From Cenococcum geophilum (Eukaryota), in assembly GCA_050273025.1 (NCBI GenBank), contig CP158635.1, positions 14,322,001-14,386,000 of the forward strand: a stretch of DNA of 64,000 nucleotides. The letters run 5' to 3'. Shown here piece by piece: positions 7,773 through 33,929 of this stretch (the first letter of the stretch is position 1; the number at the start of each line of letters is the position of its first letter). The notes under the pieces were generated by a model, which was not told where the DNA came from, ran no database searches, and was given only the letters and a program-made list of their open reading frames with translations. The position numbers and the translations under genes are program-made.

Positions 7773-8199
7773 TAACTATTTTAAGCCCTCTACTTCCTTA
7801 CGCCCCTAATATTAAGACTCTAAAGCTAACTAAGCCTTTAGTGCAGCGTCCTGCTTAGCCTCCTTTAAGTCCTTCTCTACCGCCTTTAATTAATCCCGTC
7901 AGGAAAACGGGGAGTGGCGTAGGAAATTTAGTTTCGCTAAAAGCGTTTTTAGGGCCCGGGGCTAGCTTTCCGCCATATTCGCCAAAGCCCGGAGCAATGC
8001 GCCAGCACTACGCTAGCTAAAAGTATAATACTTAAATAGCCATGGCTAATAGAGCGCAATATTACACATATTGCAGCAATATGCCAGCTTATAGCTATAA
8101 AATAGATATTATTACCATTATTACATTTATCGCAGATATTATATATCTTGCTATTATTAAAATCTATATTTATAATTATGCGTTTCTTTTACGGCTCTA

Positions 8200-11100
8200 A
8201 CTCTTTATATATTTACTAGCAGCTTATTTACCTTTTAAAAGAAAATCCTTATTATATAATATATTAAACTAATTAAAATTAACCCAAGGATTAATAATAA
8301 AGCTCTAGGGCTCTAACCTAAGCTTTAATAGCACTATATGCGCGCTACGGAGCACCAATAAAAGGTTATAAATACAACGTCCACTAATACTTTGTTGGCA
8401 CTTTGCAAGAGATTACTGCCATGGCTCCACCTCTACCATACCGTAAAAATCGTTTACGCGGCCTATATCTTTAAGACAAAGCAGGTCAACCAAAACACCT
8501 ATATATTAAAGCCGCCTACCCTATAAGTTTAACCTCTCTTTATCTATAACTGTAATAATCAGTTAAGCTTTTTTAGGAAGTATACCGCTAAAAGGGTATA
8601 TCTGCCTAGAAGTGGCAGTTTACGTATACTCTTACACCTATAAATAGTCTCGTCTCCATTTACCTTGGCTCTGCCAATTATATACGTATTAGATAAACTC
8701 TTTAGCTATAAAGTTAAGGTTCTTTCTATCCTGCTTCTAACATTACACTAAGTTATAAATGCACATAAAGTATAAGCCTACTTTAGAAGAATCCTCTTCT
8801 CTACAATCCATTTAAATATTAGTAGTAGAGGTTCTATCCTACTTATTACAGTTCTCTTGTAAAAACACAGCTAGTGCTTTAATAAAACCAGAAAGCCCTA
8901 TTTCGTTTTCAACTTAATATACCCAGCGCCATATTTTAATTAGGATACTAGCCTCTTCTGCTATATATCTATCGTCCTAGTTAATAAACCAGCCCATATC
9001 GGTTAGGTCTACTAGTTGTGTCGGGGTTATAGCGTAAACTACCTCAGCAATGTCTGCTGGCGATAAAGGTTTTATCACTTTAAGCATATAGAGTTCTTCT
9101 ATTACCATTATTTGGAGGTACCGGGTATTATAATAGAGTAATTGCTCCTAGTAGTTAGAGCGCTTATTTATACAGTTAAAGAATGCCTTTACTAGAAGTT
9201 TGTGCATAACCTTACTATACTTAACGTCTATACTAGTAAGGCTACCTATCTTACGGATGTAGTAGGGGTAGTAGGTAAGAGTATAAAGTTTTAGAATATT
9301 AAAGTGCCGTTCCTGCGTTGCGTGGTATAATAGGCGAAATCTAAAGAAAGCGGTTTTTATTTAGTCTATAATATAGAGTGCATATTCTATATACCTAATA
9401 GTATTATTGTTATATAAAGCGTATTATATAAGCATTATAAAGTCCAAGACTACTTAAGCATATAGCATTACTCCTATATATTCCTTTAGTATAAGGGGTA
9501 CTAATACTACTATAAGCTATTACATTATATCCTTCCGGAGATGGCCTATCTATTAACTAACTAATATAAACTCTTTAAACCGTTTCATACTAATAAATTC
9601 CGGTATTTAACTAAATTGTTTATTTAGTACGGCATTAATATAGTCTTTAGTTAAACCCTGCCACTTTAGTTACCCTTTTAATCGCCATAGTTTTACATTT
9701 TTAAGTAAGAGATTCTTAATCTAGTCAATTAGGTCGGTTGCTATCCCTTTTATAAGCTAGTGTAGTATATTAGGAGTCATATATATATATAGATATTTAC
9801 TAAGTAATGCTTCTAGGTAAAGTTTTATCGTGGGTAAACCCAAGTATTATCTAACTATTTAATATTCCTTCTAAATTGGAGCTCTATTTATTATCTTATG
9901 CTTATATAATTACAGAACTTCCATTTAACCTAGAGATTTCCTTACTAGTCGGGCGGTATCTAGCATATAGTGCATTGTTAAAAATTCTTTACACCTACAA
10001 TTACAACTTACTCCTTATAGTCTACCATTATTAATAAGATAATAGGGTAACATACTCTTATCTTTCCGTCTATATAGGCAATATAAATACCAGTCTTTAA
10101 AATCATTTCTAGCGCTTAAGATGCCATTAGTTAGTAATATATGGGTAGGTGGCTTAAAGCACTTACGGGCTAACATAAGTTCTATCGCGGTATAGTATAC
10201 TTCTAATTTAACCTACTCCTTCGTAATAGGAATAAACCCAAGTAATACTATACCCGGGCGTTTCTATACATAGCGAGTTCGGCTATCCAAGTTAAATACC
10301 GAAGCATACACTAAATATATTATTATTTTACCTTATTCGGACAATAAGGTCTTATTAGTCGCAATAACTAGCAGCACTACAGTAGCGCCTAGTAGAAGCT
10401 GGTCCTACTAATACTACCAACGGTTACTAGTATAAACTTCTATATACATCCGTAAATTATTGTTATTAAATAGTTAAACTAGGGCGTATATAAGATTTAG
10501 GGCAAATAGCCAGTGGCCTAGTAAGAACCGTAATACCTATATAATACTTCTGTATTAGATATAGTATTCAATCTATTTAATTAAATCCTTTCCTTTATTA
10601 ACTTACAACGTGCATTCTTCCCATTTTTCGGGCACAATAGCCTAGTTTAATTAATTATATCTCTAAAATAAGTCGTTTGAGTTCTTTATAGATATCTAAT
10701 CTTATAGTAGCGGAGTAAGCTAGGGGTCTCGTAGAAATCGATCAATAGCCCCCTATAATACTTTTTCTTAGACAAAGAATAGGGCAAGTATATACTCTAC
10801 TTCACTTTAAAATAGGTAGAATTTAGTTCTACCGTTATTAGGTGGATTAGGGCATTGCTAATACAACTACGTCTCGTCTTTAGTCGCATAGTATTATACT
10901 AATTTACCAGCACCTCTCCCGGTAACCTCTATATAGCCTTTTATCTTAATAAATATCGTAGTTAATAACAATCCTCTCTCTTATAGGGGGGGTTTCGGTT
11001 AGTTAATAGAGGTCTCTATAGTAGGTACCTCACAGCATATAGCCTAGTTGTTTAACAGTAGGGTAGATATCCCTTTAGCAGTAATAATCGCTATATTATT

Positions 11101-11500
11101 ATTACGCAATACAAAGCCCTTGTCTTCGGAAGATATTTATTGGTTACAGTTAACAATTTCCAGTGTATTATCAAATCCGTTATCGGCAGTTTAATGGTCA
11201 AATGGGACTAGTTCGTTTCTATCTCTACATCTACGCCTTTTCTAGGGGTTGCTTTGCCTTTAGATTTCATCCTTATATTTATATTTTATTTTATAACGTT
11301 CCGCGCCGCTAGTAAAATATAGAATTATACGGGATCGGCCACATCTTCTATCCATAAAGTATGCGGTAACTATTATGGATTTAGCTAGTATTTACGGCTT
11401 ATTAACGCTTAACTTACTCTTATACTAGGGTAGTAATATATTAAGCAGATACAATATTATTATTTCCAGCTTTATAGTTAGTAAGGAGTAGAGTAGACAC
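8200..11500 (-). pseudogene. Plavaka transposase, RIP-inactivated
   Basis: De-RIPed minus strand ~10240-10560: LRFLLGH..F...L.YAP...RMYTEVHTGDRWW.QQDQLPPGATVVPLVIATDKT...YPVYASVFNL...R....PGMVLLGFIP; C-terminal VLRSAHMVP...FIINPWVDFDQFN.LY (~8250-8350). Confidence 0.82.
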
Positions 11501-11689
11501 ATATAGAGGGTTTTTTATAAACTGCTTACGCGTGGAGTTTATAAGGTATTATATAATCCGCCAACAATAAGACACCTAAAAATGCAATATCTGCAATATT
11601 AATAACTAGAAATAGCCTATTTCAAAAAAGTTTAGGGGCCTATAATTTATTACATACTACTAGCTCTACGTTATAGTAATTCTTACAAT

Positions 11690-12851
11690 ATTGCGGATAT
11701 CTAACTTTTGTAAATCACTGACCTTAAAATCCTCGCCTTCTATCTCCTATTAACACTACTAGATTTTAATTTCTTACAATTCCAGTTCCAGTGCACACTG
11801 CTAAACCCGTACGTTGGTTCGGTTTGCAATATCGCAAATATTAGCATGCTATATCGCATACCCAGGGCATACTATATATATAATAGTTGTAATATCGCCT
11901 CCTTGCATCCTTGTTTTCTACCTCTTAACAAAACCACCCAAGTTTTGGTTCCTGCGACCCCTAGCTCTAAGGCATATACCAAACCTACGCATTAGTACCA
12001 TTTACAATATCGCAAATATTAGCATACTATATCGCACACCCAAGGCATACTATATATACAATAGTCGCAATATTGCCTCCTTATAACCTTAGTTCTCGCC
12101 TTTTAACAGCACCACCTAAGTTCTAGTTCCCCTAATCCCTAACCTAGGGCACACCACTAGACCATTACATTAACATATTTTACAATATTGCAAATATTAA
12201 TGTACTATATCGCACACTTAAGGCATCTTATATATATAATAATTATAAACTTAACTTATTACCTTCTCGCATCCCAGCTGTACCTAGCACCAACAGGTTT
12301 TACTTCCCTAGAATTCTAAATCTAGGGCACACTTACAGCTCTATATAACTATAAGATTCCGTAATATTACAGTTATTTAAGCATCGCGCTGTATACCTAA
12401 GGAATGGAATACGTGCATTGTCTATAATATCCAAATCCTCTACCTAAGCTTTTAATCTATATCTTCTACACAATAATTATATTTTCCTAGAATCCCAGTT
12501 ATAAAACACCTCTACCCTTAGGCGATTATACGTTTTCGCAATATTGCCAATATCTAGGGTTAGTGCACTTTTACTTTTATTTTTATGCTTATTTATAAAA
12601 TTAATTTACCTTACTATCGCGATTCTAGCTTCTAGTTGTTTACTTCTATAACATTTAACCCTTAACCTTCTCTTTTCTCTATTATATTTCCTACTATATT
12701 ACAAGCAACTTATAAAATGTTTTACTAACGGCGGTCTTCGCATTATATCCTTTCTTATATTTAAGTTTAGCAAGTTATATATCTTAGTCTATTAGTACTG
12801 CACTAATCTACCTATTTACTAATTACGCTAACCGATCATTCTAGAATCCAT
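11690..12851 (-). pseudogene. Putative Cys-rich repeat protein, copy 1, encoded by ~178-bp exon+intron tandem units
   Basis: Period ~178 bp (units at 11823, 12001, 12179, ~12358). On the minus strand each unit is a GTATGC/GTGTGC...(CTAA-like branch)...AG intron plus a ~120-123-nt exon ending CxxCxYxxPW after de-RIP. Confidence 0.6.
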
Positions 12852-12949
12852 ATTTTAACCCACTATTAGGGTTCTTCCCTCTATATAAATACCGTTTAGG
12901 ACGCCGAGACCGCTATCTAATTATCCTATAAGATAAACCCTAAGAGATT

Positions 12950-15900
12950 AGAACTTAAAGCGGTAATATTATAGGGAAGCTAGAACCAAGTTAGAAATAT
13001 ACTTAGCACTTATAATTATATTTACGCTAGAGAATACGTTAAGTATGGGATATACAGCAATATAGAAGCGTTAGCGTTTAATATAATTACCACCTTTAAG
13101 TAGTATCCCATTTAGCTGTTTATAGAGAGGAGCTACTCAGCACTATTACAGAGCAAAAATTAAAATGGCAGGAGGAGTAAGACTAAAATCGGTAAGCTAA
13201 AAGAGGGCAACACTATTTATAGGTAACAGGAATAATTCCAACCTAGTGTCTTCTCGCTAGTCTAAAATACCAGAGCTCGTAAAGAAGCATTACTATAGCA
13301 AATTAAAAGCACCTTCGGCCAACGCCCCAAATAGGATCTCGCCGCACTTTATTAAGAGTAAAGTGGCTCTATAGGCTTGCTCCACAACAATATATACTAG
13401 TGCTACTTATATCATTGCCAGTCTTATCTCCAATCTATTATAAGGCAGAAGCCTTATAAGTCCACCTACTAGACACTAGTTAGCCTATACTAGGACGAGC
13501 TTATATTAATAGCCATCGCACCTAGTAGTAAGATTTAGCCCATAGGCTTTAACACTAAGCGCCCTTATAATAACTATAGTCCCTACCTAATATAGAAAAA
13601 AGCTAGCTATTACAATTAGTGACGCTATAAACTCTGGCTTATAGATGCTAAAGCTAGAAGTCCAACTTCTATATAAGTACTTTATATTGCAGGTATTACA
13701 GCTCTTATAGTATATTACTAATATTTAAATCCAATTACATCCTTATTAAATATATAAGTTACAGCTAGCCCATTTCCAACCCTAGATAGTATAACTTCTA
13801 CGCCAATAACGCTTTAAACTAGTGTTTAGAAACCGGTCCCCACTAGAATATCTACTAGTTTTGGTAACAATGCCACCCTAACTAACCCGCTATTAATCCC
13901 CACCTATATTCCCGAAAATAGCGATCAGTCTACGGCTAGTATTGCTAAGATTACTACTGTTAGCGAAAATAATACTATAATAGGCGAAACATCTAAAAAA
14001 GGCAATGCGGATGCTTATAGAAGTCAGCCATCTTCGCCGCTAACGTTAGTAGATACCCCCGAGCTATACGGGATTAAGAAGATAGTATAATTAGAAAATA
14101 ATCTAACAACTCTAGACAACGCCATAGACGTAAAGTCTACTAACAGCAGTAATAACAAAGATAATAGCGCTCCCCTCCTTAGTAAAGATAATGGCGCTAA
14201 AAACGACTTCGTAGATTATAAGAATAAAGGGGATGTTAGTAATCCTAATACTACGTTTTTTAAATATATATACGTGCATATATCTCCAATATATCCAATA
14301 TAGACGCTCTCTAAATTTAAAACTAATATTTATTTAGTTAAAATTCTGGCTTTAGCTAAGTAATAAGGAAAGAATGCGAGCATATTAACGAAAATCTATA
14401 GTTAAAGGTATACAGATGCCTCTGTTTTAGTCCTAACGCCGACCTTAACGCAAATAGCCTTCTATTACCACTATAGCCGGTTGCAAAATCCTTTAGGGAG
14501 AAAAAATATCAACTAATTACCGCCCATTATTAGATTATATTTAAAGAAAATAACGTTAATAGCGGTATACGCGCTAACTAGATAGGATTAGGCAAGACAG
14601 TAATTACAATTCTTGCCCATATACTAAACCGATTAATTATTTTTAACAAATAGGCCGTTTAGGATTCCTGAGTAAAAAAATATAAATTATATTTTACTTA
14701 TTCTAAAGGGAAAGCCAAAAGCGTGTAATGCTCCTTATAGGATAGATTACAAAGGTAGTATACCTATATTAGTAAGAATCCATATTCTAAATTTAAAGAG
14801 TTAATAGCCTAACGCTTCTTATAGCACTACCTAGACGTTTATTAGCCTAGGTAAATAATATAAAAGTAGGGCTTAGTTATTAATATATTAAGGATATACA
14901 TAAATCCGTAGATATAAATAGTAAAAGGGATATTTAGTTTTAGCTAATCTATAACAACTATAACAAAATACACTATAAGTTCCTCTCTAATATTCTTAAG
15001 TACCGTAAAAGCAATATTATTTTTAATACAGATACCCCCGACGTTAAATATTATACCCCACTCATCAGCTTATCTAGATTTTATTATTACCACAATATTA
15101 AAGTATTAAAAAAAATCTCTTAAGTCCCCTAAGTATATAAATAACACGGACTATAAAGCCCAAAAAGCCCCATTATATAGCACTATATACATCTTATCCA
15201 ATTCTATTAAGAAGCGCTTAACCTAAAGCTGGTAGTCGATTAGTAGGTCTACGAAAATTAGCTAACTAAATAATGCCCTCGTCTAGTAATATTCCAGTAC
15301 TCTAAGAGGCGCTATTTCTAGTAATCTCGGCGCCTTTCTAGGAACTCTATTAATAAGGCAAGGTAATAAATAGGAGAGTAAGCCTAGTTATAATCTGCCA
15401 CTTAGTCCCAATATCCACATACTACAGAGAAGTGTTAATAGGATAGTTAGGACAAAAGTAAAGCTAACTAAAGGTGCTAGGAAGAAAATGTAAGAGATTA
15501 TAAACGGCTTCTATAGTGTTGTCCCCTAGTTTATTATTAAATATTTAATAAAGACGAAGTAGTTTATTAAGGAACTGCTTATTTAGATTAAAACGACGCG
15601 AACTAACCAGAACTCCCATACTACCTATAATCCCTCCGCTACAAAGCAGATAAATGAGGCCACTTATAACCTTAAAGCGGAGTTCAAGCCATTATATAGT
15701 AAGAAATTAGTCGGCTGGATACATAAAGTATTAAAACCATAATACGAAACTATAGAATAATATTAGCTTAGTGCGGCATTATAGAAAGCCTTTATATCTA
15801 TACCAGTTTTCTAGGATAGCATAATTAAAAGGATAAGGGTTAAGGTTTTAATATACCTATTACACCTATATACTTATTAAGACAAGAATAAATAAAATTA

Positions 15901-16560
15901 TACCCTTAGCCGTTGCAAAAACCTTAACAATTTAATCCTTTATAGTAAGTCAGACTCTTCTATATAGATAAGCCTAAGTGTAAATACCTTAAAGACTATT
16001 CTTACTAAACTTTAGCCTACTCACAAATATAATCTATAGAAGTTAATTATATTTACCATATTCCCTATATTCGCATTTATAATACGCCTAGTATATTATA
16101 TTTACAATAAGCGCAATATTCTTACACCCCACTTATTATTTAATCTCTTAGATATAAATATGGCGAGAACACCTACCGTCTTATAGCTAGCTAGATCTAG
16201 GTTAAGAGGGATAAAGTTATTATTAACGACTTTAACACCAAGGCCTACCGAGGCCTCTTACTTCTACCAGCCAGGATCCGCATAGTAACTCTTAGCAAGT
16301 TTTATTCTGCCGGTATAAAATCAGTGACTTAGAGCTTATTTTTAGTATTATAAATCTAGACTTTAGAGCCGTAAATCAATTGATTGGCATAGAGCCGTTA
16401 CATTATAGTAAAGCTATATCTAGGCAATCTACATCGTAATCCTTAGCATAGTATTACACGTAAAAATGTTTAATTATAAGAATTAGGAAGGGGTTATATT
16501 TTAATTAAATTTATAAAATTACAACTAAAAGTCCTCACGGCGTAGTAGTACGGTAAGTGA
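12950..16560 (+). pseudogene. SNF2-family helicase-like cargo gene, copy 1, RIP-decayed
   Basis: NGGIRADxMGLGKT (~14560-14600, SNF2 motif I); KLIIFT (~16040); LDFRAVNQLIGMEP (~16356) helicase-C region. Confidence 0.75.
16272..16355 (+). repeat. Short dispersed repeat inserted in SNF2 copy 1
   Basis: CAGGATCCGCAYAGTAAC...CCGGTATAAAA...AGCTTATTTTT also occurs at 37293-37410. Confidence 0.7.
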
Positions 16561-16949
16561 TATAATTGCTATAATTTAAAGCTAGCCTAATAAGATTAAA
16601 AACAGTTATCTCTAATATATATATATATATATATATACCAAGAAGCGTAACTTATAAAATTAGGCCTTAAGACTACCAAAACCCGCATATTAGCACTTCT
16701 TGTAATATTGTAAATATTAATATGCTACGTCGCATATTATATATATAATATCTAAAATCTCGCCTACCGCCGGAGTTATAGTTTTTGCGACCCCATATAT
16801 ACCTCCAAACCCACGCAATAGTGTTTTTATTAAGTTCATTTTATTTCCAATAGCTTATCGCACCACTTACGTAACTTTAATTATTTCCACGTTATACGCC
16901 ACCTACTTAAGATCCTCTAAATAGCCAAGATAGCAAACGTATAGAGTAA

Positions 16950-17915
16950 AAGCCCTATCCCATCTTAATTTTAGGCATTTACCGTTATAATTACCTTAAA
17001 AGCTCCTTATTAACCCCCATTAGATTTTTATTAAACCGCCATTCTACAGCTTACCCTTCGGCTTCTTAATCGCTCGGCCAGCCTCTCTATAATAATTATT
17101 GGCTATTAAACCGGCGTAGTTACCAACGTCACTTACGACTTTAAAGAGCTGTCTATATTTATTATTTAGACGGATAAAGTTTTTTAAATACCATTAAGTC
17201 TTTAGTTTATAGCGTCCAGTTCGGCTGTCTTAAACTCTTTTAAGTCCTTAAACTTAGTATTAAGCTAGTTATATTTATATTTTAGCATAACTAATTCTAA
17301 CGGCGCTTTCTTAATCTATTTAATTTCTGCTTTTAACTTGTCGCGCTCCTTTATAAGATAGTTCTACTTTATTACTTAGGTATCCCAAATTAAATTAATA
17401 ATAAATATATTTTAAGCCTTTTTAGCTTTTTAAAGTTCCTTAATATTAGTCTTCAAACTCTTAATATTCTAGCAATTAATAGCTAACGTAGTTTATAAAG
17501 CATCCCACTCCTCCTTTATACAACTAATTGTCTAACTTATAATATTAAAGAGGTCCCCCTTTTATGGTTTTCTAGTTTCCATAACAGCTATCTCCGCAGC
17601 ACTATTTTTATTTAACTTAGTTCTCTCTAGACTATATATAGCGGCATTTCTAGCAGCCGGCAGGATAGAATAGGTTAGCGAAGGCTTTTTAAGAAGTAGC
17701 TAAACTGTCTTTATAGCTTTAGCTACCTTACCATTCTTCTCTTACTCAATTAGAAACCCTCCAATCTCCTTTTAGCAACTATCCGCCGCCTTCTTCTTTC
17801 GCGGCTTTAGAGCTAGCTTCGTAGTTCCATCTCCGTTCTTTAGTAACGCCTTTTTAATATAGGGACGCTTAGTGCGCTTGGCTAGGGTGGCTGCATACTT
17901 AGGTTTTTCATTCAT
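16950..17915 (-). pseudogene. Lys/Glu-rich coiled-coil cargo gene, RIP-decayed
   Basis: Minus-strand frame MNEKPKYAATLAKRTKRP...KPRKKKAA...; charged, heptad-like content with RIP-type stops; preceded by a GTAAGT...AG intron. Confidence 0.5.
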
Positions 17916-18069
17916 CTATAATAACTAATTAGCGTAAGATATCTATAACTTACCAACATACGTACTATTACAACGTTCACTTAAAATAGATTAAGGGCTA
18001 GTATAGTTAAGGTGAGAGGAAATTTATTCTAATATAGAGAGTAGGTAATAGATAGATAGATAGATGGAT

Positions 18070-18850
18070 AGATATATAGTTTACAATATCACAAATATCT
18101 ATATACTAATTCGCATACTTAGGGCATGCCATATATACAATAGTCGCAATATCGCCTCCTCACAACCTCAGTTCCTACCTCTTAATAGTACTACCTAGCT
18201 CTAGGGCATAGCACTAGACCTATACGTTAGTACGGTTTACAATATCGTAAATATTAGCGTGCTGTATCGCATACCCAAGGCATGCCATATATACAATAGT
18301 CGCAATATTACCTCCTCGCAACCTTAGTTCCTACCTCTTAACAGCACTACCTAAGTTCTAGTTCCTCTAATCCCTAACCTAAGACATACCACTAGACCAT
18401 TATATTAATATATTTTGTAATATTATAAATATTAACATACTATATCGCACACTTAAGGCATCTTATATCTATAATAATTACAAGCTTAACTTATTACCTT
18501 CTTATATCCTAGCTGCACCTAGCACTAACGGGTTTTACTTCCCTAGAATCCCTAATCCAGAGTATATCACTAGATTATTTTCATTTAATCTGTTATACCT
18601 AGCTTAATATTGCCAATATTACGCGCAATAACCATTTATTTTATTTTAGTTTAATTCTTAAATTAATTTACCTCACTAATACAATCTCGGTTATCGGTTA
18701 TTCACCTATATAGTTAGCAGACCTTATATCTTCTATCATAAGTCTACTATCTTACCTTTTTCATCCTAGTACAGACATCTTCTTACGCTGGATATTATTA
18801 AGAGGAGGCTCTTTACAATGACTTTTTAGGAAAGCGAGCTTAATAAGTTA
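18070..18850 (-). pseudogene. Putative Cys-rich repeat protein, copy 2 (same exon+intron units)
   Basis: Units at ~18080, 18236 and 18414 are homologous to 11823-12357, with the same GTATGC donor and YCDYCIYGMPW exon end. Confidence 0.55.
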
Positions 18851-18999
18851 AACTACGCAGGCCATTAAAGCCAAGCTAGTCTATCCTTTTGCTATTTATA
18901 CTAACCCGCTATTATAGGTCCCAAATTATAGCCCATTATTAATAATAAACCCTTATACCTACATCCCGTCTAGTACGCCTTAGCTACTATCCAGCCATT

Positions 19000-22014: not shown

Positions 22015-22696
22015 AAAACCTTCACCGCACATGCAACCTTACCAAAAGGTGGCGCCGCACTTCCAAACTTACGCATACCCATCTTACCATCAAAAACTAT
22101 CGTTTTCCTAACTCCTAAGACCTAATTCTGCCTACCTAGCGAGCTAGAGGTAGACTTGTTCCCCTTATTACCCCCTTTATTCTGCGATAGAGGCCTTGGC
22201 AAAAGGGGTCCTAGCGTATAAGCGAAGCACGGACAAGAACACCAAAACTACTACTACTACTACTACCAATACCAAAACTATAAAATATAGACTTTTCCTA
22301 GGTTTTTCTTCTATAGAAAGTAAAAGCCTAATAAAATAGGGGGTGTAGGTACTTTTCTATATCTCTTTTAGTCAGACTTTCCTTAGTAAGAGGAGGATTG
22401 CCTTTAGGGCTTTTCTGCTAGCAAAAGCCTAATAAGTCCTTTTTTTTTAGTAGTTTTTTCTACTTCTAAAAGGAAAAGAAAATAACTACGCTAGTCTTTT
22501 TTAGCTAGTTTTTCTACTACCTTCTAGCCTAGTCTCCCTAGAAATCCTCTAGTAGGATTAGTAAGGAGAAAAGGTAAAAAAGGATAGTAAAAACTAGCAA
22601 GGCTTTTTGCCTAGTTTTTCACCTCTGGGACTAGGAGATAAGAGACCTAAGGAGGTTATTATCTACTGAAAAAACTAGGAAACCCCCCCCTATAAA

Positions 22697-24274
22697 ATGT
22701 CAAAGAATCCTCAGGCTACTAAGCCTAAAAAGCCTCCTAAAGACAACAATACAGAGACAAGGGATAACGAATTCACTTTCCCTTTTCCCTCTTACTCTAG
22801 CCTATTTGGGACAGGAGAACCTCAGGCTACTAAGCCTTCTAGAGGTAAAGACACTATAGAGACAAGCGAGGACGAACTCTTAGCTGCCTTACCTGCCTTA
22901 CCTACCTCACCTACCTCACCTACCTCACCTACCTTCTCTTCCTCTTCTCTCCCGCCTTCTCCCTGCCCATCTAGGGAGGACGTAGAGAAAGAGAATAGAA
23001 GGAAAAGAAGGCAATCTTCTTCTGAAAATAGAAAAGAGAACCAAAACCAAAGAAGAAGGCTACTAATACCTAAGCCTATTTCGGCTAGTATACCTTCCTC
23101 TACCTCTTCTCCAAAACAGCACCTACAAATGGCTCTATATAACCTAAACCAGGCCTATATAGGGCTAAAAGAAGAAGAAGAAGAAAAAGAGCAAGTTAAA
23201 TTACTAGGGGACTACGTACAGAGTGTCCTAGGAGGAGAAAATCCCTTTACAAAAGAAAAGGAAAGAAAAGAAAGAGATGTCCTAAAAGGACTAGTAGAAG
23301 AAGTAAGAGCTCTCCGTAAGGAGGTAGCCCCAAAAACGCAAACCTACGCAGAGAAGCTAAAGAAGGGCCTCTCTTCTTCTACTTTTGCTCATTCTTCTAC
23401 TACCTCTTCCTCTACTACCTCTCCCTCTCCCCCTCCCTCCTTATCTCCCCCTACTAGTTCTACTAGCTCTACCTCTACTAGAGGAAAAAAGAAGCAGTTA
23501 CAAGAAAGGAGACTAGTCCTAGTTACAGACTAAAAGGACCAGCCTCTAGATGTCTTCTCTCTACGAAATCAAGTTAATTAACTATTTAGATCTAAACTGC
23601 AAATAGAGAAGCCAGTAATAGCTACTATAGCTAGAACTAGAGAAAAGTAGAATATTCTCCTTATAACCACAGAAGAATACGATGTAGAGTATTTAGTTAA
23701 ATATAAGGAAATCTGGTCTAACTGCTTCTCTTTTAAAAGGGAACAAAAACTAGAGCCCTGGGCTCAGGTAGTAGCTCACGGCGTCCCTATCTCCCCTTTC
23801 CTAGGAGAAGGAGGCTCTAAACTTCTAAAAGAAGAAATAGAGACTTTTAATCCTATTAGAATACAGGGATTACCTAGATGGATCTCATCTAGGGAAAAGA
23901 GATATAATCCACAAACTAGGTTTGGCTCTATAGTCTTTGCTATAGAAAATGAGGAGAAAAGATAGGAAATCCTTAAGTAGAAGGAAATCCTAATTGCAGG
24001 GGTAGCTGCTAAGGTAGTTAAATACCTAAAAGTCTCTCCTACTACACAGTGTACAAGTTGCCAAAAATTTGGCTATATAGGAGATAGATGCTCTACCAAG
24101 GCCTGTCGATTTTGTGCAGCGGCACATTTATCTAAGGACCACTCCTGTTCTACTTGTAATATAATAGGAAGACCTTGCGAGCATACTACCCCTCTTTGCA
24201 GCAATTGTAAAGAAAATCACTTTGCTAATAGCAAAGATTGCGAGTCTCTTAAAGCAGCTAAGCTAGTATATTAA
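22697..24274 (+). pseudogene. LINE ORF1 (gag-like, CCHC knuckles) with premature stops
   Basis: ORF 22697-23533 continues in frame past RIP stops to QCTSCQKFG.IGDRC, CRFCAAAH...HSC and CSNCKENH knuckles; ends TAA 24272-24274. Confidence 0.85.
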
Positions 24275-27200
24275 TGAGTATAAGCTTAGAAGGTTCTATA
24301 CAGGAAGAAGAAGAGATCTCTCTAGTTTCTAAAACTAGGGGAGAAATCTCCTTTATACAACACAATGTAGGAAAAAGACAAGAAGTATAGCAAACCCTAC
24401 TAGAAATAGGATTTAGGAAAAAAACAGATATTATTCTAGTACAAGAGCCTAGTACCTGGAAAGATAGACAAAAAGAATCCTACTTTTCTATTCTATATCC
24501 TGCATTTAACCTAATCCTCCCTAGTAATCTAGCTATTCGACCTAGAGTAGCTATCTATATAAGGAAAACTGTTTCTAGTATTCTACAATATAGAAGTAGG
24601 GAGGATATCTGCAAAGATACAGATATTATAGTATTAGAAATCTATGGCCAACTTGAAAGATTTCTACTATTTAACATCTATAATGAGAGACAACTGGACG
24701 AAAACTCTAGAACCCAAAGAAGTAGTATAACTACTATCTCTAGGGCCATTCTAGAACTGGAAATAGATCTCCCTTTTGTACTAATAGGAGACTATAACCT
24801 ACACCATAAACGGTGGAACGCGCTAGCTAGGAACCCAACTAGGGAGGCTAAGGAACTAGTAGACTGGCTAGACAAATATAACTGCCAACTACTAAATTCA
24901 GACGAACAGGAAGGGACCTTCTATAGATCTAATATAAGGGAAAAGTCTATTATAGACCTAGCCTTCTACTCAGGAAACTTCCAAGAAAATACCTGGGATA
25001 ATTGGACTATAATAGAAGAAACAGGATCTGATCACAAGACTATAGCATTCTCTTTATTTACTAGAGAGACGCAAAGATACCTAAACCCTCTTCAAGAAAC
25101 TCCTTTCTCTATAAAAAAGGCAAACTGGGAGCTTTTCTCTACCTCTTTAAAAGAGCAAGTTCTAGAGCTAGAACTAGAAGCGAAACTTTTAGTACTAGAA
25201 GAACTAGTAGGAGAAAACCCCTATATAGAGATAGGAGAAAAAGGTCCCCTAGCCTCTCTAGAAGATTCCTATAGACCTAGGGATAGAAGCTTAAGTACAC
25301 TAGTAGATAATCTAGTAATAGATCTTACTAGAGGTATAAAGCTAGCAGCAGAGAAAGCTATCCCTAGATCTAGAACCTGCGAATTCTCTAAACCATGGTG
25401 GAATAAAGAGCTTCTAAAGAAAAGACAAAAAATGGCAAAACTAGGAAGACTTCAAGAAGAACAACCTACTAGAAGTTCTAGACTAGAAGCCTATAAAGAA
25501 GCCAAAAATCAATACTTCCACGCAATAAGAGAAGCCAAGACTAGCTGCTGGAATAGCTTCCTAGAAAAAGCACAAGGAAAGGAAGTCTTTACTGCCCTAA
25601 AATACACAAAGGAGAGAACATTGCGAATAATCCCTAGTCTACAGTATAGCAAAGACGGGAATACTAGACTAGTAGAAAGCTTCGAGGACCAGTGTAAAGC
25701 TTTTACAACTACTCTATTCCCTAAACCCCCCCCCTCTACTAGCCCTATAGAGTGGAAGGACTATACAATAGACAATAAATGGGAATGGCCAGAACTAGAG
25801 AAAATAGAAGTCAAACAAGCAATTTTCTCTAGCTCTAATAAAAAGGCTCCAGGACCAGATGGGATATCTTTTGCAATTCTACAAAAGGCCTACCCTACTA
25901 TAGAAGATCTTCTGTATAGAATCTATAGGATTTTGTTTATCCTAGGCTATCAGCCAAAGGTCTGGAGAGAAGCTCGAGGAGTTATTCTCCCTAAAGCAAA
26001 TAAGGAGGACTATTCCTTACCAAAGTCCTATAGACCTATCTCCTTACTAAACTGCCTAGGAAAGACTTTAGAAAAGATCTTTGCTACTAGATTAGGATAT
26101 CTAGCTAGTACTACTAGCTTACTTCAAGATTCTCAACTAGGAGGAAGAAGACAGCGGTCTGCAATAGACGCAGTCTTATTACTTCTAAATAATATCCAAT
26201 CTAAAAATAGTAGGAAAAAAGCTAGACAAAGGATAGCCACTACGTTATTCCTAGACGTAAGAGGGGCTTTTGACCATGTCTCTAAAAACCAGCTTTTATC
26301 TATCTGTAAGGAACTAGGACTACCTATAGCGTTTACACAATGGGTAGCTACTTTCCTTAGCAATAGAAAGCTACAGCTCTCCTTTAATGGGCAAATACAA
26401 GAAAAAGTAGAACTAGAAACAGGGATACCACAGGGATCGCCTATATCCCCTATTTTATTTCTACTATACATACGTAATATCTGCAGCATACAGACAGAAG
26501 GAGCCTACTCTCTTAGCTATATGGACGATTTTGCAATTACGGTTACCTCAAATTCAGCCAAGTCTAATTGTAAAAAGCTAGAGAGAATAGCGCTAGAGCT
26601 AATGTCTAGAGCTAAGGAAGCTGCTATTAGTTTCGACGTTAGCAAAACAGAGCTTATACACTTCCATAGTAAACGCACTACTATAGAAGAAGGGTTAAAG
26701 CTAGGAGACGTAGAAATATCCCCTAAACCCCTAGTTAGGTGGTTAGGGGTATTTCTAGACTCTAAGCTTACTTTTAAACAACATATAGAAATACAAATCT
26801 CTAAAGCAAAAACAGCCTTCTATTTAATTAGAAGACTAGGCAATATACAAAGAGGTCTATCTCTACAAGCCCTACGACAGCTCTATATAGCTTGCGTTAC
26901 CACTATAGCAGACTACGGTGTACAATGCTGGTGGAAAAGCAAATCTAGAGACTACCTACTAGATAGGTACCAATCTCTACAAAACGAGGCCCTAAAACTA
27001 GTTCTAGGAGCGTTTAAAGGATCTCCTAGCCAAGCTGTAGAGATCGAAGCCTCTATTCCTCCTCCTAGAATTAGATTTGAAAAGCTTTGCAATAACTACG
27101 CATTAAGAATCCTAAAATTCAAGGAAAACCACGTAATTAAGAAGGTCTATATAGAAGAGATCAACAAAGATAGGGACGAATTAGCAGCTAATTCTAGCTC

Positions 27201-28362
27201 TAGTTCTAGCCCTAAAAACTCTACTATAAAGTACCTCTTACAGCCAAAGACACAGCTACTATCTTTAGCCTCTAGAGTTCAGCAGCTAATTCAAAACTGG
27301 AAAATAGAGAGAATCTCTCTAGAATGGCAAAAACCGTGGTCTCCTCCTATCTCTGCATTCTTTTCTATCTCAAGGGGTAGTAAAGAAGAAGCTGCACAAG
27401 AACATTTAAGACTAGTAGAAAGTTTATAAGAATCCCTAGAGTGGGACCTAGTAGATATATACTATACAGATGGCTCTAAAGACAATAAATTAAATGCAGC
27501 TGCTATATGTAAAATAGGGGAGAGAAATAGGATTAAATATGCAACGAACTGGAATCTAGGACCCTATATGGAAATTATGGACGCAGAGCTCTATGCAGTC
27601 TATAGGGCCCTAGAACACCTAAAACAATAAAGACTAGAAGAGAAACAAGTCTATATCTTTATAGATAGCCAAGCGGCTATTAAGAGATTACAGCTTAATT
27701 CTCTTACAGGGGGGCAAGAACTAGTCTTTAAAATTACGCAAAGCTGTTCCTACTTAGCTAGTAAGGGGATCTCTATTAACTTCTACTGGGTTCCTAGCCA
27801 TCTAGGAATCTATGGGAACGAAATAGCAGATAAGCTAGTAAAAAAGGGCCTTTCTAGAAGAAAACTACAATCTTCTTATACCTCCTTAGCCTATATAGGG
27901 AGAGCGGCAAGAGAAGAGATACTAGAACAGTGGAAAAATAACTGGCAGCAGAATAGGAATAAAGGAAAACACTATACTAGGATCTGTAAAGGAAGCCATT
28001 CCTTTTCTCTTAAAGCCCCTAAGGATAAATATCCTAAAAGGCTACAATCGGCTTTCTTCCAGCTAAAGCTAGGAAAAGGCTATTTCAAATCCTTTACTAA
28101 AGTAATAGGAGAGGATAAAGAAGGTAGATGCTTTAGGGAATGTAGAGCACTACAAACCCCTAGACATCTACTACTAGACTGCAACCTATATAGGGAAGAA
28201 AGAAGAGAAATGCGAAAGAAACTAGGCTCTTCTCTCTCTCTAAAGAAGCTATTTTGTACACAAAAAGGAAGAGAGGCGCTTTTCCTATTTCTAAGTAGGA
28301 CAGGGATAGCTACTAGAAAGTGGCTAATAACAGCAGGATCTATAGGAGGTAACTCCTACTAG
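24274..28362 (+). pseudogene. LINE ORF2 (endonuclease-reverse transcriptase-RNase H) with premature stops
   Basis: ILVQEP, GDYNLHH..W, GSDH (APE); KAPGPDGI, YRPISLLNCLGK, GIPQGSPISP, YMDD (RT); YYTDGS, WVPSH.GI.GNEIAD (RNase H). Confidence 0.93.
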
Positions 28363-28679
28363 GCTCCTAGAAAAGAGATATTAGTAAGCAAAAGGACAGA
28401 AATAAATTACAAAAGGACAGGGAAAGGCGTTAGGATTTCTTATTTTCTTATAGTTTTCTACCGTTTTCTCATTCCCTAGTAGTTGCTTGTAACTTAGTAT
28501 TTTACTAAGGAACTATAAACCCCTAGTTTAGGGGCTTATAAACTACTAGGACATAGTTACTAGTATATGTTAAGCTGCCCTAAGGGATTCATGTATATAG
28601 GACTATAGCGCCATAGCCTAGAGGCTGTATGCGCAGTATTGTACGTAGTATAATACAATGGATATAAAAAAAAAAAAAA

Positions 28680-29330
28680 AACCCCAATTAGTCTATATTT
28701 AAGCAAGAACTGCCTTCTATTATAGCTTTAAGTCCAAAAATAGATACCTTAAAAACAGTTCTTACTTAGCTAGGGACTAACTATAAAGGTTATCCTAAGA
28801 AGTTAGTTATCTTTACAGCATTCCTAGTAGCCGCCTTTATTATTTATCTAGTACGTCTTATCTATTCTTAAAGCAATATTTTTATATTCTAACACTAGAT
28901 TAGTATCTTCTTAATAGGTACAGACTAAGTAGCTGCGAGTTAGTTAGCGGTAGGCTTAAGATAGAAGAAAGGGAGACAATTATTAAAGAATTTAAAAATA
29001 ACCCCACTTTAAGATTTCTTATATTAACTACTAGCCTAATATCTAAAGTATACACTCTAATTAGAGCAAGCAAAGTGTTCATATTTAAGCCACAGCTACT
29101 ACCTATAGTTAAAGCTTAAGCATTTAGACGTGCCTATAGGATTAAACAGCTAGAAGATAAAGTTATAAATATTAGGGCTGTATCTAATAAGGTTAATATA
29201 GAGGTATATATTTAGCAGTGGGCTAAGAAACATAAGATCTTTATACTAGGTGCTTTCTCTAGAGCGCTAAAGCATTATATTAAAAAGAAGCGCCTTTCTA
29301 GTGCTTTACTACTTAAGATTACTTAATATG
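28680..29330 (+). pseudogene. SNF2-family helicase-like cargo gene, copy 2, 3' part (helicase C)
   Basis: De-RIP: KKLVIFTAFP...ERETIIxEFxNxPTLRFLI...YTLIRASKVFxFEP...EAQAFGRAHRIxQ. Confidence 0.8.
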
Positions 29331-29769
29331 TATTAAAACCGGGTTCCACTAGCAAGGTTATATAGTAGGGTATAAACGGTTTCTTCTATATACTTAACTA
29401 GCTTAATTAATACTACTAGCTAAGTAGGCACTGCCTCTACAGTATACTAATTATAATATATTTTATAACACCTAGCTCTAAGTATATATAATAAAAATAT
29501 TATAGTTATTACATATATATAAATATTATAAAAGAGGTAATAAATATAATATTTGCTAATATAATATATTATAAATATTATAAATAATCGGTAGATATAC
29601 CTATTTAGGTTTAGCCGCTATACAACTCCTTTTTCTTTACGCTAACCCCTACTTAATTATAATAACTACTACGAACTACCCAATAATAATTAACAGCACT
29701 ATACTGGGTATTTACGCGTAAATAGAATAACAATCTAAACCTATATCGCTTTCTTTAGTATATAAGGCC

Positions 29770-30810
29770 CATGCGATAAAGAACTAGTTAGTAAAGTTTA
29801 TCTACCTAGGCCTAAAAATTAATAAAATATTATATAGCGATATTTATTCCACTATAGAACAGGGACTTACAGACATTTAAATGCTTAGTTTATAACTAAA
29901 TAAGGTCAGAAACTGGTCAAGACTTAATTAGGTGTTTTATAGTATAATTAAAACATTTTCTACCGTTTTTACAGGCATACTAGAACCTTGGCAAAGTAGG
30001 TATTTATCCGCAATTACCTAAAAATATAACAATAATCGGAAGCGTTAAGTATTAGACAGAGTAACAACCCTAGCATAAATTAAGTCCGTTACGTATTATC
30101 TTAAATTAACTAATACACACCAACCAAGCAAAAAAGACCTAGAGTTAGTTACTCAAAATAGCCTTATATTTAGAACAGTGCAAACTAAAGTAGTCTATAA
30201 AGGAGATAGCCGGGAAATACTATATAGTTATAGATACTTTACGGCCGGTAGTATACTAGATAATAAAATTACGTTAACCGATCTAGACTTTAGTCTATTT
30301 ACTAGCGTACTTTTAGAAGATATTAACTTTAATCCCATAAAATATAGAATTTTCTATTATAATAGCTAAGGAAGGGAGATAAAAGTTCTTACTAAACGAA
30401 CCTAGAGGGCTGCTATAAATGAAATGTATACCAAAGGACTTAATCGTTTTTATTTTATAGTAAGATACAAAAACCAAGGTAAGATAGATTATATAAGTAA
30501 TTTTAGCAATATTGGAAATATTCTAACGCATTTAAATAGGTACACTATACCCGGCTACTGCACCTATATATATCAAAACTATTACACCACAAGCCGTTAT
30601 AAGCAACTTATTGTCAAAGCTACCTAAAACATAACTAAAGTTAGAAAGAAATCGTTCTAAGCCTAGGGGTTTAAGGGCATCTATACAGGAAATCAGTAGT
30701 ATACTTAGACCAACGGTTTCTATATATAAAGTAGAATTAGCGAGTAATAAATTAAAGCGGAAACGGGAGACCTCCGTTTAGCCTAAGAAAAAAAAACCAA
30801 AGGCCTAATA
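29770..30810 (+). pseudogene. Unknown cargo gene, RIP-decayed
   Basis: Residual in-frame ORFs 30178-30369 and 30424 onward, separated by a RIP-type stop; GT-AG intron at ~30479-30539; no family recognised. Confidence 0.4.
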
Positions 30811-31099: not shown

Positions 31100-32700
31100 A
31101 TCATCCAATATATAGGTTATTGCAGCGTCTAGCAGCCAGGTGCGACTTATATCCGCTTTATAATAGTAGCATATAGCTAATAAGGTAAAGCCTATAGTTT
31201 TAGTAAGACTCGCGCATATCTAAGGACGAATCCGATAGTGATAAGATTCCACTACACCCCTATCGCCCTTAAGACACTCATCGCCGTAGGACTAATATAA
31301 CTTAACATAAGCTTAAATCTGCCACCTATTCTAAGTCATTAGTTTAGAAAACAGTAAGGCCTATATACCTAGCATATAGATTAACCATTTACCTGCGTAT
31401 ATAGGGTTATTATAATATATTGCCTAATAAACGCCATTATTAACTAAGCACTACTAAGGACGGAAGTATTAACGGCACAAAATAATCGAGACACGAACTA
31501 GAACTACTCTGGCAGGGAGTATAACAGCGGGCTAAGTTTAACTCTACACCCATACACGCACCTATACTAGCCTACACTAGGCTACTTATATAGGCTATAG
31601 TTATAATAGGCTACTTTAATCCTTCCTATAGACTCTCTTTATGGCCAGAAAGACAGAAGTCGGGCGTTAACGCACTAATTATTAATACTTAGCGAAAGGC
31701 TGGTTTGAATAATTAGGGGCGTATATTTAATAATATTCGGCCTCTACCTAAACTAAAAGAAGCTTATAGGGCAAGTCTTTAAAATCTACACCTCCTCCTA
31801 GCAATATTTAAAGTACTACTAACATAGTATATATCGTAAAACTATAGTTATTTAACTATATCGGCGACTTTAGATTATATATTCTAAGTAATATTCGTGC
31901 AGTTATATATATATATTATCTATTCCCTAATACACTAAATACCTAAGCTCTAGTCTTTTAACTACTTAAAGATAATATATTTATATACGCATATCTAAAG
32001 CTTATAAGCCCTACTATACACTCCTAGAGTTTACCTACTAATAATAGAAGGGGAAACAATAATTCGCAGCACCCGTAATCATTAAGTGTATTACTTAATA
32101 CTTTTTTAACCTAAACTTAAAAGGCCTAGCTTTACATCCCTAGACATCTAAGTATTTTCACCTACTTTCGGCTTACACTATTATACTAATTACTACTTAT
32201 ATTTAACATGCACTCACTAAATATAAAAAGGGAAATTTGCGGTAAATAGTTAAAGTAGATATAATAGAAGAACTAAACAGTATAAGCAATACTCTAATCT
32301 ACCTATATATTATAAGATATTAATTTATAAAGCAATATACTATTAAATCTGAAAGATATAGGACGCGCAAGCTTCTAATAGAAAAGTTAAACTACTACAG
32401 GTAATAGCTAGTCTTATTTAGAAGCAGATATACAAGACCGGTAACCCAGTTGAAAATACGCATATAGTATATAATCCATACGCAGATAATACCGATAATC
32501 TAGATAAGCTTAAGCCATATACAACCTAGCACAAGTTTAAGTTCTTAGTAATAGATGGCTTTCCTATCTCTAGTAACGATGACTTAGGGCCTACTAGTTC
32601 TTCCTCTTTTACTTATATAGATAAGGTAACGCTAGTAAGAAGTAAAGATTCGGTTTTAGATTAAAGAGTAAGCAAAAGCGCATTTTTAATTATTATATTA
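31100..32700 (+). pseudogene. Cargo gene with DUF6532-like C-terminal region, RIP-decayed
   Basis: De-RIP ~32060-32240: FAAPVIIECIxQYFFDPN.KGL...SKYFHPLSAYTIxLITTCIQHALTEYxKG, resembling the DUF6532 pattern from memory; needs HMM confirmation. Confidence 0.4.
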
Positions 32701-33089
32701 ATAACTTAACCAGGGCACTTTACGTTTAACCCTAGTTTCTTCGCCGCCAATAACTATAGATAGCCCGCCTATCCAAAACTATAAGGCTTCTCGCTTTAGG
32801 GTTACTTAGTATTATAACTTAAATAATAAACCGTATATACTTAATGTACTATATATAATAACACTAAATAGACTGTAAAACTTACTAGGTGTTAAAGAAG
32901 AAGATTTTCTTTAGTATACTCTTAGAACGAGGGAAAAGCTACTAGATAATAGTAGATTTAATATATTTTTAGAGTCTGTGTAGTAAAAGGAAAATAGCAA
33001 TATTAAAATAAGGCTAGGATTGCCTAAAGATAATAACCCAAATATATAGTTACTTCCTCTAAGGTATATAGATAATATTTCACTTTCCA

Positions 33090-33790
33090 AAATATTATAA
33101 TTATTACGGTCATAAAAAATATTGCGATTATTGCAGTTATAGAAAATATTGCGACTATTATAGTCGTGGGAAATATTATAACTATTATAGTCGTGGGAAA
33201 TATTATAACTATTGCAGTTATAAGAAATATTGCGACTATTATAGCCATGGGAAATATTACGACTAGTGCAATCACGGGAAACATTATAAATATTGCAACT
33301 ATTGCAGTTGTGGGAAATATTACACTTATTACAGTCGTAGGAAATATTACAACTATTACAGTCGTGGGAAATATTGCAACTATTGCAGTCGTAGGAAATA
33401 TTGCGACCATTGCAGTCGTAGGAAATATTGCGACCATTACAGTCACGGGAAATATTGCGACCATTGCAGTCACGGGAAATATTATAAATATTGCAGTCGT
33501 AGGAAATATTGCAACTATTGCAGTCATAGGAAATATTGCGACCATTGCAGTCGCGGGAAATATTATAAATATTGCAGTCGTGGGAAATATTACAACTATT
33601 GCAGTCATAGGAAATATTGCAACCATTGCAGTCGCGGGAAATATTATAAATATTGCAGTCGTGGGAAATATTGCAACTATTACAGTCGTAGGAAATATTG
33701 CGACCATTGCAATCGCGGGAAATATTATAAATATTGCAGTCGTGGGAAATATTGCAACTATTACGGTCATAGGAAATATTATAATTTTAA
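33090..33790. repeat. Subterminal tandem array of the Plavaka element
   Basis: Repeated GGAAATATTGCRACYATTGCAGTCGTR 27-mers with variant units (ATTATAAATATT), all multiples of 3; ends ~140 bp from the right TIR. Confidence 0.9.
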
Positions 33791-33929
33791 GATATAAGGT
33801 TGCTAAAGTAGCCCCGGGCTAGCGTAAAGAAGTATACATAAGCAGATCAGCGGATCCAGCTGAAATGACCCCGGGCCAGCCCCGGGCTAGCCCCTGGCTA
33901 GCCCCAACCACTCTCCCGTTTTCCTAACG

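Follow-up and report, generated by a model that had tools for sequence, protein, structure and literature searches.

The 64,000-nucleotide stretch of Cenococcum geophilum contig CP158635.1 analyzed here (the window, to which coordinates refer unless a locus is named) contains at 7897-33929 what is probably one copy of a multicopy, autonomous transposon of the Plavaka lineage, a group of CACTA/EnSpm-related DDE elements (CMCT clade), inactivated by repeat-induced point mutation (RIP). Its ends are closest to those of PlavakaB, and in addition to its transposase it carries SNF2-type genes, a conserved open reading frame (ORF) that we named ORF-X, and a DUF6532-like gene (table 1). An initial annotation, made from the letters of the sequence, had described a giant Plavaka/CACTA-like transposon carrying chromatin-related cargo. 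Genes of chromatin type do lie inside the ends; however, they look like accessory genes typical of the family rather than captured host genes, so that "cargo" is not the fitting word.

The element spans 26,033 bp between terminal inverted repeats (TIRs) of 21-22 bp, CGTCAGGAAAACGGG.. at one end and CGTTAGGAAAACGGG.. at the other, flanked by a TCC target site duplication (TSD), as initially proposed. The 15 leading letters of the TIRs are alike save one C/T difference and, after a 1-letter indel, 6-7 more agree. The G+C-rich 15-nt pattern CGTYAGGAAAACGGG has exactly two exact matches in the 64 kb, which are the two ends in inverted orientation, against a chance expectation of ~6e-5 by our own estimate from the base composition of the block. 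Because short inverted repeats occur frequently in this DNA (31 kb contain 344 pairs of 16 nt or more, and the TIR pair is not one of the 25 longest), we place the weight of the evidence on this G+C-rich exact match and on the termini of related elements. When aligned, the element ends read ...GTTTTCCTGACG and ...GTTTTCCTAACG. The left end begins with CGTCA, and TAACG at the right end corresponds to TGACG before a C>T change. The TCC duplication, read from one insertion only, falls within the 2-3 bp typical of PlavakaB.

The reverse complement of the left TIR, ...TTTTCCTGACG, aligns with the termini common to related families found in metagenome contigs (see below), and the terminal motif TTTTCCTGA(T/C)G, which resembles PlavakaB termini, recurs at their ends. 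Four copies of the L013 family share their sequence up to ...ATATTTTCC(C/T)GATG, beyond which lie four unrelated flanks. Locus L049 has TTTTCCTGATG ~500 bp past its transposase. In L003, ...AATTGCTGATG is found at 20012 and follows a GCCCTGGGCTAGCCC motif similar to the ones close to either end of the window element. Relatives L040 and L049 end in TGATG and L003 in GCTGATG. A motif of the GCCC(C/T)GGGCTAGCCC type is present near both ends of the element and near the L003 end. Within L003, the best inverted match to its terminus is 12 nt long, as expected by chance, and the 15-nt end of the window element gave four scattered matches of no clear meaning in the complete set of 80 loci, with up to two mismatches allowed.

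Subtraction of a nested retrotransposon (22015-28692, one TSD copy counted) leaves 19,355 bp, in agreement with the initial claim of a single unit of ~19 kb. About 17.6-19.4 kb remains for the element itself, with its two SNF2 modules, ORF-X, the DUF6532 gene and a subterminal array. The claim that removal of the element restores a flanking ORF was not confirmed and is weak: a frame crosses the joined flanks, in itself a 1-in-3 event, but it contains many stops and matches no Pfam family, and the flank is itself a high-copy, RIP-mutated repeat.

The transposase, whose gene ends ~290 bp inward of the left end, had been recognized correctly. The minus-strand translation of 8500-11700, in which stops were written as X, matches PF18759 at 62.4 bits (E = 5.7e-17), above the curated cutoff of 26.3, and a second piece matches in another frame. 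A phmmer search returned 659 relatives at E ≤ 1e-3, the best (8e-71) being a protein of 1178 aa; a hypothetical protein of the ascomycete Ciborinia camelliae is among the full-length relatives. According to tblastn with intact relatives, the relic at 10977-8188 corresponds to their residues ~175-1153, with a frame change at ~10115-9795; the N-terminal ~175 residues, which are unrecognizable, would extend the gene to ~11600. All 38 invariant columns of an alignment of 11 proteins are covered and 26 are kept, including both invariant cysteines of the C(2)C motif (C517 and C520 of P0002) and H595. Ten of the 12 changed columns are accounted for by C>T or G>A, among them two Gln-to-stop and two Asp-to-Asn changes. 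This copy is dead: invariant residues and many codons have been destroyed by C>T and G>A changes.

The relatives come from 80 loci, identified by scanning metagenome contigs with a Plavaka alignment, with flanks limited to 10 kb. One of them, L003, is not mutated (G+C 0.44). Its plus-strand transposase (PF18759, 161 bits) is divergent from the minus-strand genes upstream, which encode DUF6532 (970-1239, 40.9 bits), an ORF of 409 aa (2361-3587), Helicase_C (4456-4932, 20.3 bits) and SNF2-rel_dom (4936-6414 and 6421-6726, 52.4 and 28.5 bits). The order and orientation of transposase, SNF2, ORF-X and DUF6532 are the same as in the window, with a single SNF2 gene between transposase and ORF-X. By tblastx, six colinear high-scoring segment pairs (HSPs) link window 28698-32233 to L003 5106-1057, with a combined E of 6.9e-25 printed for each HSP in a search restricted to three loci. 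These include the 3′ part of SNF2 module 2 (L003 5106-4522), ORF-X and the DUF6532 gene (L003 1448-1057), which also matches 9591-9782 of L005. As a side observation, L003 encodes a 1307-aa Upf1-like helicase (13511-17443; AAA_11, AAA_12, zf-CCHC) between its transposase and putative terminus. This may be a further accessory gene there. Downstream of it, at 18650-20012, lie arrays in which a GTCGCATTCT-type motif occurs in either orientation.

This homology supports several genes announced by the initial annotation. ORF-X is conserved in L003 (E = 4.9e-14), and Pfam, NCBIfam and Atlas gave no lead for it (best Atlas match 0.77). The DUF6532-like gene gains support from its homology to the L003 gene, whereas its own PF20149 match (32027-32239, E = 1.1e-4) scores 22.6 bits, below the cutoff of 24. 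Both SNF2-like genes are likewise recovered through L003, although neither passes a Pfam cutoff in the window and module 1 has no Pfam match at all. By contrast, no family was found for the two "Cys-rich" genes. Nor was the "coiled-coil" gene confirmed beyond a coiled-coil-like reading by eye on the minus strand at ~17.3-18.0 kb, in a stretch of higher copy number without a Pfam family.

Flanking ORFs were scanned in 50 of the 80 loci, 48 of them at ≥170 aa outside the transposase and L003 and L005 at ≥75 aa; the rest comprised 25 loci without such an ORF and five AT-rich loci of the L013 family. A match to SNF2-rel_dom, Helicase_C or DUF6532 was found in 12 of the 50, above the Pfam cutoff in six (L003, L027, L057, L060, L062, and L069); in L004 a Helicase_C-like match was obtained by tblastn only. 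Seven of the 12 (L051, L055, L057, L062, L063, L067, and L069) form one family with 81-91% identity, so that the genes are present in about six independent lineages rather than 12. The unit common to that family extends from DUF6532 across SNF2 as far as the transposase (L062 236-12692 versus L069 96-12704). In L063 (1-22276), two DUF6532-SNF2-Plavaka units lie head-to-head (L062 622-7086 versus L063 22276-13600, reversed).

The SNF2 region consists of two modules, each opening with a 178-bp repeat array. A self-comparison in purine/pyrimidine (RY) code, which is blind to RIP transitions, detected a direct duplication of 11995-15928 and 18074-22010. Outside this code the modules show 65% identity, 21% transitions and 14% transversions, the latter 4-6% in a core at ~13.5-14.7 kb and ~20% elsewhere. 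The modules are old paralogues rather than recent duplicates. Each has in lobe 1 a motif that we take to be Walker A motif I (GxGKT): IGLGKTV at 14582-14626 in module 1 and IGLGKIV at 20655-20699 in module 2. In module 2, SNF2-rel_dom scores 16.1 bits at 20622-21041 (E = 0.0063, cutoff 24.9), and Helicase_C just after the retrotransposon scores 22.2 bits at 28892-29143 (E = 1.8e-4, cutoff 23.5). Pfam gave no match in plus frames of 12801-17302 and 15801-18202 or in minus frames of 11701-20502, and the density of stop codons failed to single out coding frames in the block. Since its own scores lie below the cutoffs, membership of the relic in the SNF2 family rests on homology to L003. Exon alignments of the L003 SNF2 gene, scored against reversed-sequence controls, gave 72 for module 1 at 14369-14636 (control ≤37), 77 and 102 for module 2 at 20442-20709 (≤30) and 21255-21894 (≤39), and, for its 3′ part, 90 with the end of the SNF2 domain (≤37) and 60 with Helicase_C (≤33). 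At the protein level the likeness of the modules continues ~150-200 bp past the retrotransposon (scores 114 and 89, reversed control 62); a further alignment across it, with a score of 128, is probably overextended.

The SNF2 protein of the element is very divergent: a PDB sequence search with an L003 SNF2 exon returned no match at E ≤ 0.01 and a word search with it among longer proteins returned no homologue. None was retrieved with the RIP-mutated SNF2 frame either, and NCBIfam gave Snf2 matches far under cutoff only. In an Atlas feature search, all ten best matches with a Pfam family were SNF2.

Contigs of four sequencing runs were placed on window 5000-24999 at ≥80% likeness: X1, the probable source strain, and X5, X8, and X10, other strains under the same species label. 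The summed contig depth, which the tool cautions is not a copy number and which we use as a hint only, is in X1 ~3560 for the transposase, ~3360 for module 1 and ~3290 for the 5′ part of module 2, against ~80-135 for single-copy contigs. The corresponding part means are 480, 486, and 485 in X8 (single bins 374-606), 178, 166, and 148 in X10, and 109, 90, and 79 in X5, where both modules reach 0.72-0.83 of the transposase. The outer flank, the bins at 17.0-18.3 kb and the retrotransposon have very different depths from the element parts. These values hint at tens of copies in which transposase and both SNF2 modules travel together. A joint from 5508 to 7897 is seen in one contig each of X1 and X5, with a short side of 27 letters, and is likewise a hint only. 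Joints between equivalent places of the modules (e.g., 13083 to 19166) look like alignment switching between the paralogues and were not used.

The two-module layout invites another explanation, in which the outer ends are real but the copy is composite: arrays of two diverged elements would have recombined, unequally or ectopically, and thereby added the block at 11.7-18.1 kb to an element whose canonical form has one SNF2 gene. The single gene of L003 would fit, as would the two arrays of one 178-bp family that bound the block. Module 1, without a detectable Helicase_C, abuts a fragment of another family, and 14% transversions are what modules from different lineages would show. On the other hand, the summed depth of module 1, a rough measure, about equals that of the transposase and module 2 in X1, X8, and X10. 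The depths, including the X5 ratio, fit most copies having both modules. The unevenness of the transversions is also consistent with paralogues evolving under selection within one element. We consider a composite copy unlikely.

Far less probable is that only the transposase and nearby ends belong to a transposon, SNF2, ORF-X and DUF6532 being unrelated host genes or separate elements in the same RIP-mutated block. This block is indeed a pile of nested repeats, comprising the retrotransposon, an L013-type fragment and the high-copy flank. The subterminal motif also forms arrays in the interior, beside the transposase gene, and in L005 an array separates SNF2 from the transposase. However, there is no second match to the terminal motif on the 5′ side of the transposase, and the sole exact partner of the left end is at 33929. 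Because of the synteny with L003, in which order and orientation are conserved across 9 kb, of their co-amplification in the L062/L069 family, and of a summed depth like that of the transposase, we assign the accessory genes to the element. The retrotransposon has its own target duplication; no such duplication was apparent beside the other genes on inspection of the sequence, although no dedicated search was made. The initial annotation had anticipated a similar alternative, with TIRs bounding the transposase only and the remaining genes inserted later. This is not what we found, but the retrotransposon and the ~1-kb fragment are later insertions. Finally, that the inverted ends and TCC arose by chance in a cluster of decayed repeats is scarcely credible: inverted repeats abound in this AT-rich DNA, the TIRs are not among the longest and a 3-bp repeat has a 1-in-64 chance, but the G+C-rich pattern matches at the two ends and nowhere else, the terminal motif lies at a like distance from the transposase in three other families, and the GCCC(C/T)-type motif accompanies both ends and that of L003.

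Several points weigh against reading 7897-33929 as one family-typical element. The evidence on its boundaries comes from one copy, and the single contig-mapping test could not span 26 kb. Its terminus differs from the PlavakaB consensus at the second letter (G, not A), four of five letters agreeing. The DUF6532-side terminus was seen in no relative, as the loci stop at the 10-kb flank. The window scores of SNF2-rel_dom (PF00176), Helicase_C (PF00271) and DUF6532 are all below curated cutoffs. Thirty-eight of the 50 scanned loci have none of the three domains. In L005, a repeat array stands between the SNF2 gene and the transposase, both of which are encoded on one strand, and DUF6532 follows downstream. 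The lack of a detectable Helicase_C in module 1 and its foreign neighbor also count here, as the layout with two modules could be a rearrangement rather than the canonical form of the family. The depths are no copy numbers, and the role in chromatin proposed below for the accessory proteins is drawn by analogy.

Two observations on relatives may be recorded beside these points. Other neighbors within 10 kb of the transposase include Pkinase_fungal (L007, L010, and L017), CHAT (L025 and L031) and Ulp1-type Peptidase_C48 (L039). L005 has an inverted pair of arrays, at 3865-4060 between the SNF2 gene and the transposase and at 11181-11344 at the contig end after DUF6532; if arrays mark ends, its SNF2 gene might lie outside the mobile unit.

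A Plavaka-lineage element of this kind would have been a cut-and-paste transposon. Its transposase, possibly together with an accessory protein that binds DNA, would have recognized the terminal TTTTCCTGAYG and the AATAGTYGCAATAT arrays, one of which occupies the right end while the others precede the transposase and SNF2 genes. In the window, 41 matches to AATARTYRYAATAT were counted where 1.0 would be expected. The 27-bp array on the inner side of the right end accounts for 25 of them, all on the minus strand, and the two internal arrays contain four exact matches on the plus strand. The L013 family and L005 also have tandem arrays immediately upstream of their transposase genes. The SNF2 ATPase or ATPases, ORF-X and the DUF6532 protein presumably served the element itself. 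Their most likely role, judging from the TET/JBP and SET/methylase genes that accompany other Plavaka elements, would be the opening or remodeling of chromatin at donor or target sites, or the countering of silencing. One possible mode is a remodeler loaded onto the repeat arrays of the element. More tentatively, and with rather more doubt than confidence, one may picture a Plavaka sublineage spread over several fungal lineages with a conserved three-gene accessory system (divergent SNF2, ORF-X, and DUF6532) needed for mobility or for escape from silencing.

Among known systems, PlavakaB of Agaricomycotina has termini CATCA..TGATG, a TSD of 2-3 bp and TET/JBP accessory genes (PMC12730594). It shares with the window element the PF18759 transposase, the two cysteines of the C(2)C motif, the short TSD and an accessory gene acting on chromatin or DNA marks (PMC12730594). 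The window element differs from what is described there in its Dothideomycete host, in its size of ~19 kb, and in having SNF2 (two copies), ORF-X and DUF6532 instead of TET/JBP. Its ends are PlavakaB-like with one differing letter, and its transposase may belong to PlavakaB or to a sister group. Giant Plavaka elements of 17-19 kb with three accessory genes are reported from the red algae Bostrychia moritziana and Chondrus crispus (bioRxiv 10.1101/2025.02.11.637652). As portrayed there, they resemble the window element in size, DDE transposase, accessory genes modifying chromatin or DNA, tandem arrays beside one of these genes and mostly degenerate copies. However, theirs are PAG1-3 (N6-adenine methylase plus SET; ParB-like plus 2OG oxygenase) and their hosts belong to another kingdom. 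The accessible text on the ascomycete Tuber describes an element of the Plavaka group with TIRs, a 2-bp TSD and the TIR motif CATAC (PMC12581995). It shares with ours a host in Pezizomycotina, TIRs and short TSDs; its 2-bp TSD and CATAC motif differ, and accessory genes are not mentioned in that part of the text. DUF6532 is listed beside Plavaka and KDZ domains as co-enriched in a published paper.

More remote comparisons also help to place the element. Maize En/Spm, a CACTA transposon, likewise has a 3-bp TSD, short TIRs, many subterminal motifs and a second element protein; its termini are CACTA, it is not known to carry an SNF2 gene and it is much smaller, at about 8 kb. Starships are, like this element, very large mobile elements of ascomycetes with passenger genes, but they move by a tyrosine recombinase "captain" (DUF3435). 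We found no DUF3435 or other tyrosine recombinase in plus frames of 12801-22102 and 28651-33152 or in minus frames of 8500-20502 and 28651-33152 (plus 7897-12800, minus 20503-22014 and the retrotransposon were not scanned), so the distinction from Starships made initially is upheld in the frames scanned.

In the literature searched, which did not extend to supplements or to Iyer et al. (2014), no report was found of SNF2 or DUF6532 as Plavaka accessory genes; where Plavaka and SNF2 are named in the same paper, SNF2 stands in a different context. What appears to be new is the SNF2/ORF-X/DUF6532 set; giant Plavaka elements with accessory genes (red algae), Plavaka with TET/JBP (fungi) and an ascomycete Plavaka (Tuber) were known already.

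Few cut-and-paste transposons carry genes beyond the transposase, and those that do, such as VANDAL elements, TET/JBP-bearing fungal elements and red-algal Plavaka, have been informative on chromatin silencing. The present family adds a DDE lineage that keeps an SNF2-type ATPase, an ORF of unknown function and a DUF6532 protein together across distant hosts, with intact copies in metagenomes. It also offers a concrete context for DUF6532 and for a very divergent SNF2 clade, with relatives in which to test it. If the more tentative picture of a three-gene accessory system is right, the transposon would bring its own chromatin motor and DUF6532 would be a transposon protein. For annotation, fungal gene models labeled "SNF2" or "DUF6532" may turn out to belong to transposons, and the element accounts for a class of RIP-mutated repeats of ~20 kb found in Dothideomycete genomes rich in repeats. 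The window copy being dead, its value is that of a map of the element and not of an active system.

Table 1. Features of the Plavaka element, its target duplication and its nested insertions in the window
Feature	Positions	Strand	Evidence
Left TSD copy TCC	7894..7896	n/a	Sequence read directly; matches 33930-33932
Left TIR CGTCAGGAAAACGGGGAGTGG	7897..7917	+	Sequence read, pattern match
RIP-killed Plavaka transposase	8188..10977 (matched part)	-	PF18759, phmmer, tblastn
Array 1, 178-bp units, directly upstream of transposase gene, AATAGTYGCAATAT motif on + strand	11729..12558	+	
Module 1, older SNF2 paralogue: N-terminal region and ATPase lobe 1	12559..16288	+	RY-coded alignment, L003 exon match
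Fragment of second Plavaka family (L013 type), nested or recombined in	16289..17303	+	RY identity to L013
Repeat of higher copy number with coiled-coil-like minus-strand reading	17304..18073	n/a	Contig depth, by eye
Array 2, family of array 1	18074..18579	+	Repeat finding, RY alignment
Module 2, 5′ part: N-terminal region and SNF2 ATPase lobe 1	18580..22014	+	SNF2-rel_dom, L003 exon matches
Nested non-long-terminal-repeat retrotransposon (long interspersed nuclear element, LINE)	22015..28692	+	Poly(A) 28666-28681, own TSD (AA)CCCCAATTAGT
Module 2, 3′ part: SNF2 domain end and Helicase_C	28693..29579	+	Helicase_C, L003 tblastx
ORF-X, conserved ORF of unknown function	29776..30456	+	tblastn with L003 409-aa ORF, E 4.9e-14
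DUF6532-like gene	31845..32239	+	PF20149, tblastx to L003 and L005
Subterminal array, ~25 copies of 27-bp unit, AATAGTYGCAATAT motif on minus strand	33089..33786	-	
Right TIR (reverse complement CGTTAGGAAAACGGGAGAGTGG)	33908..33929	-	Sequence read, pattern match, end alignment
Right TSD copy TCC	33930..33932	n/a	Sequence read directly

The LINE is 6.7 kb long, with a target duplication of 11-13 bp of its own and an open frame of 1012 aa (24391-27426); the reverse transcriptase encoded there resembles LINE-1 ORF2p (E = 1.5e-17). It splits the second SNF2 gene between its two lobes, since Helicase_C resumes directly after the LINE on the same strand. In each of the four strains its family has by far the greatest summed contig depth, at 10-30 times the value for the Plavaka family. 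The LINE is less decayed than the element that hosts it, yet its RIP indices are positive.

The ~1 kb between the SNF2 modules is a fragment of a second Plavaka family, that of the L013-type loci, whose transposase region barely aligns with that of the window element. The similarity covers window 16289-16601 and 17153-17303 and extends to five metagenomic loci (L013, L040, L044, L076, and L006), with 80-88% DNA identity and 97-100% in RY code; in this code, 16289-16584 is 97% identical to L013 72-367 and 17210-17303 is 100% identical to L013 9291-9384. Rich in AT and ~90% identical to one another, the L013-type loci represent another Plavaka family, whose length is at least 13.2 kb. Next to the fragment, at 17006-18339, the summed depth is higher than in the element interior by a factor of 2-3 in three of the four runs and of 1.2-2.6 in X8. 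Rfam returned nothing in 15900-18100, so that the conserved DNA there is not a known RNA.

The element lies in an AT-rich block at ~5.5-34.3 kb, with a G+C of 0.29-0.41, between gene-rich DNA of 0.45-0.54. Across the block, the RIP index TA/AT is 1.5-1.9 and (CA+TG)/(AC+GT) is 0.3-0.7; the corresponding values for the gene-rich flanks are 0.8 and 1.3. Ordinary fungal housekeeping genes in these flanks encode Ecl1, a lysine methyltransferase, YL1 and a PUF/RRM protein. The best named relatives of the YL1 protein are from Dothideomycetes (Zopfia rhizophila 51%, many Pleosporales 43-50%), and the host is therefore an ascomycete of that class. Together with the strong RIP indices, this supports the initial description of a large ascomycete DDE element with defined ends and chromatin-type genes. 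The DNA at the insertion site (5500-7896 and 33930-34400) is itself a repeat mutated by RIP, and its copy number is higher than that of the element, with a summed depth of 16000-24000 in X1. In the one frame scanned, Pfam found no family in either flank. In the gene-rich flank, 37304-37406 and 41358-41937 resemble L040 32-132 and 15196-15830 at 74-80% identity; the second of these stretches sits in a local dip of G+C at 41-42 kb and is probably another small repeat.

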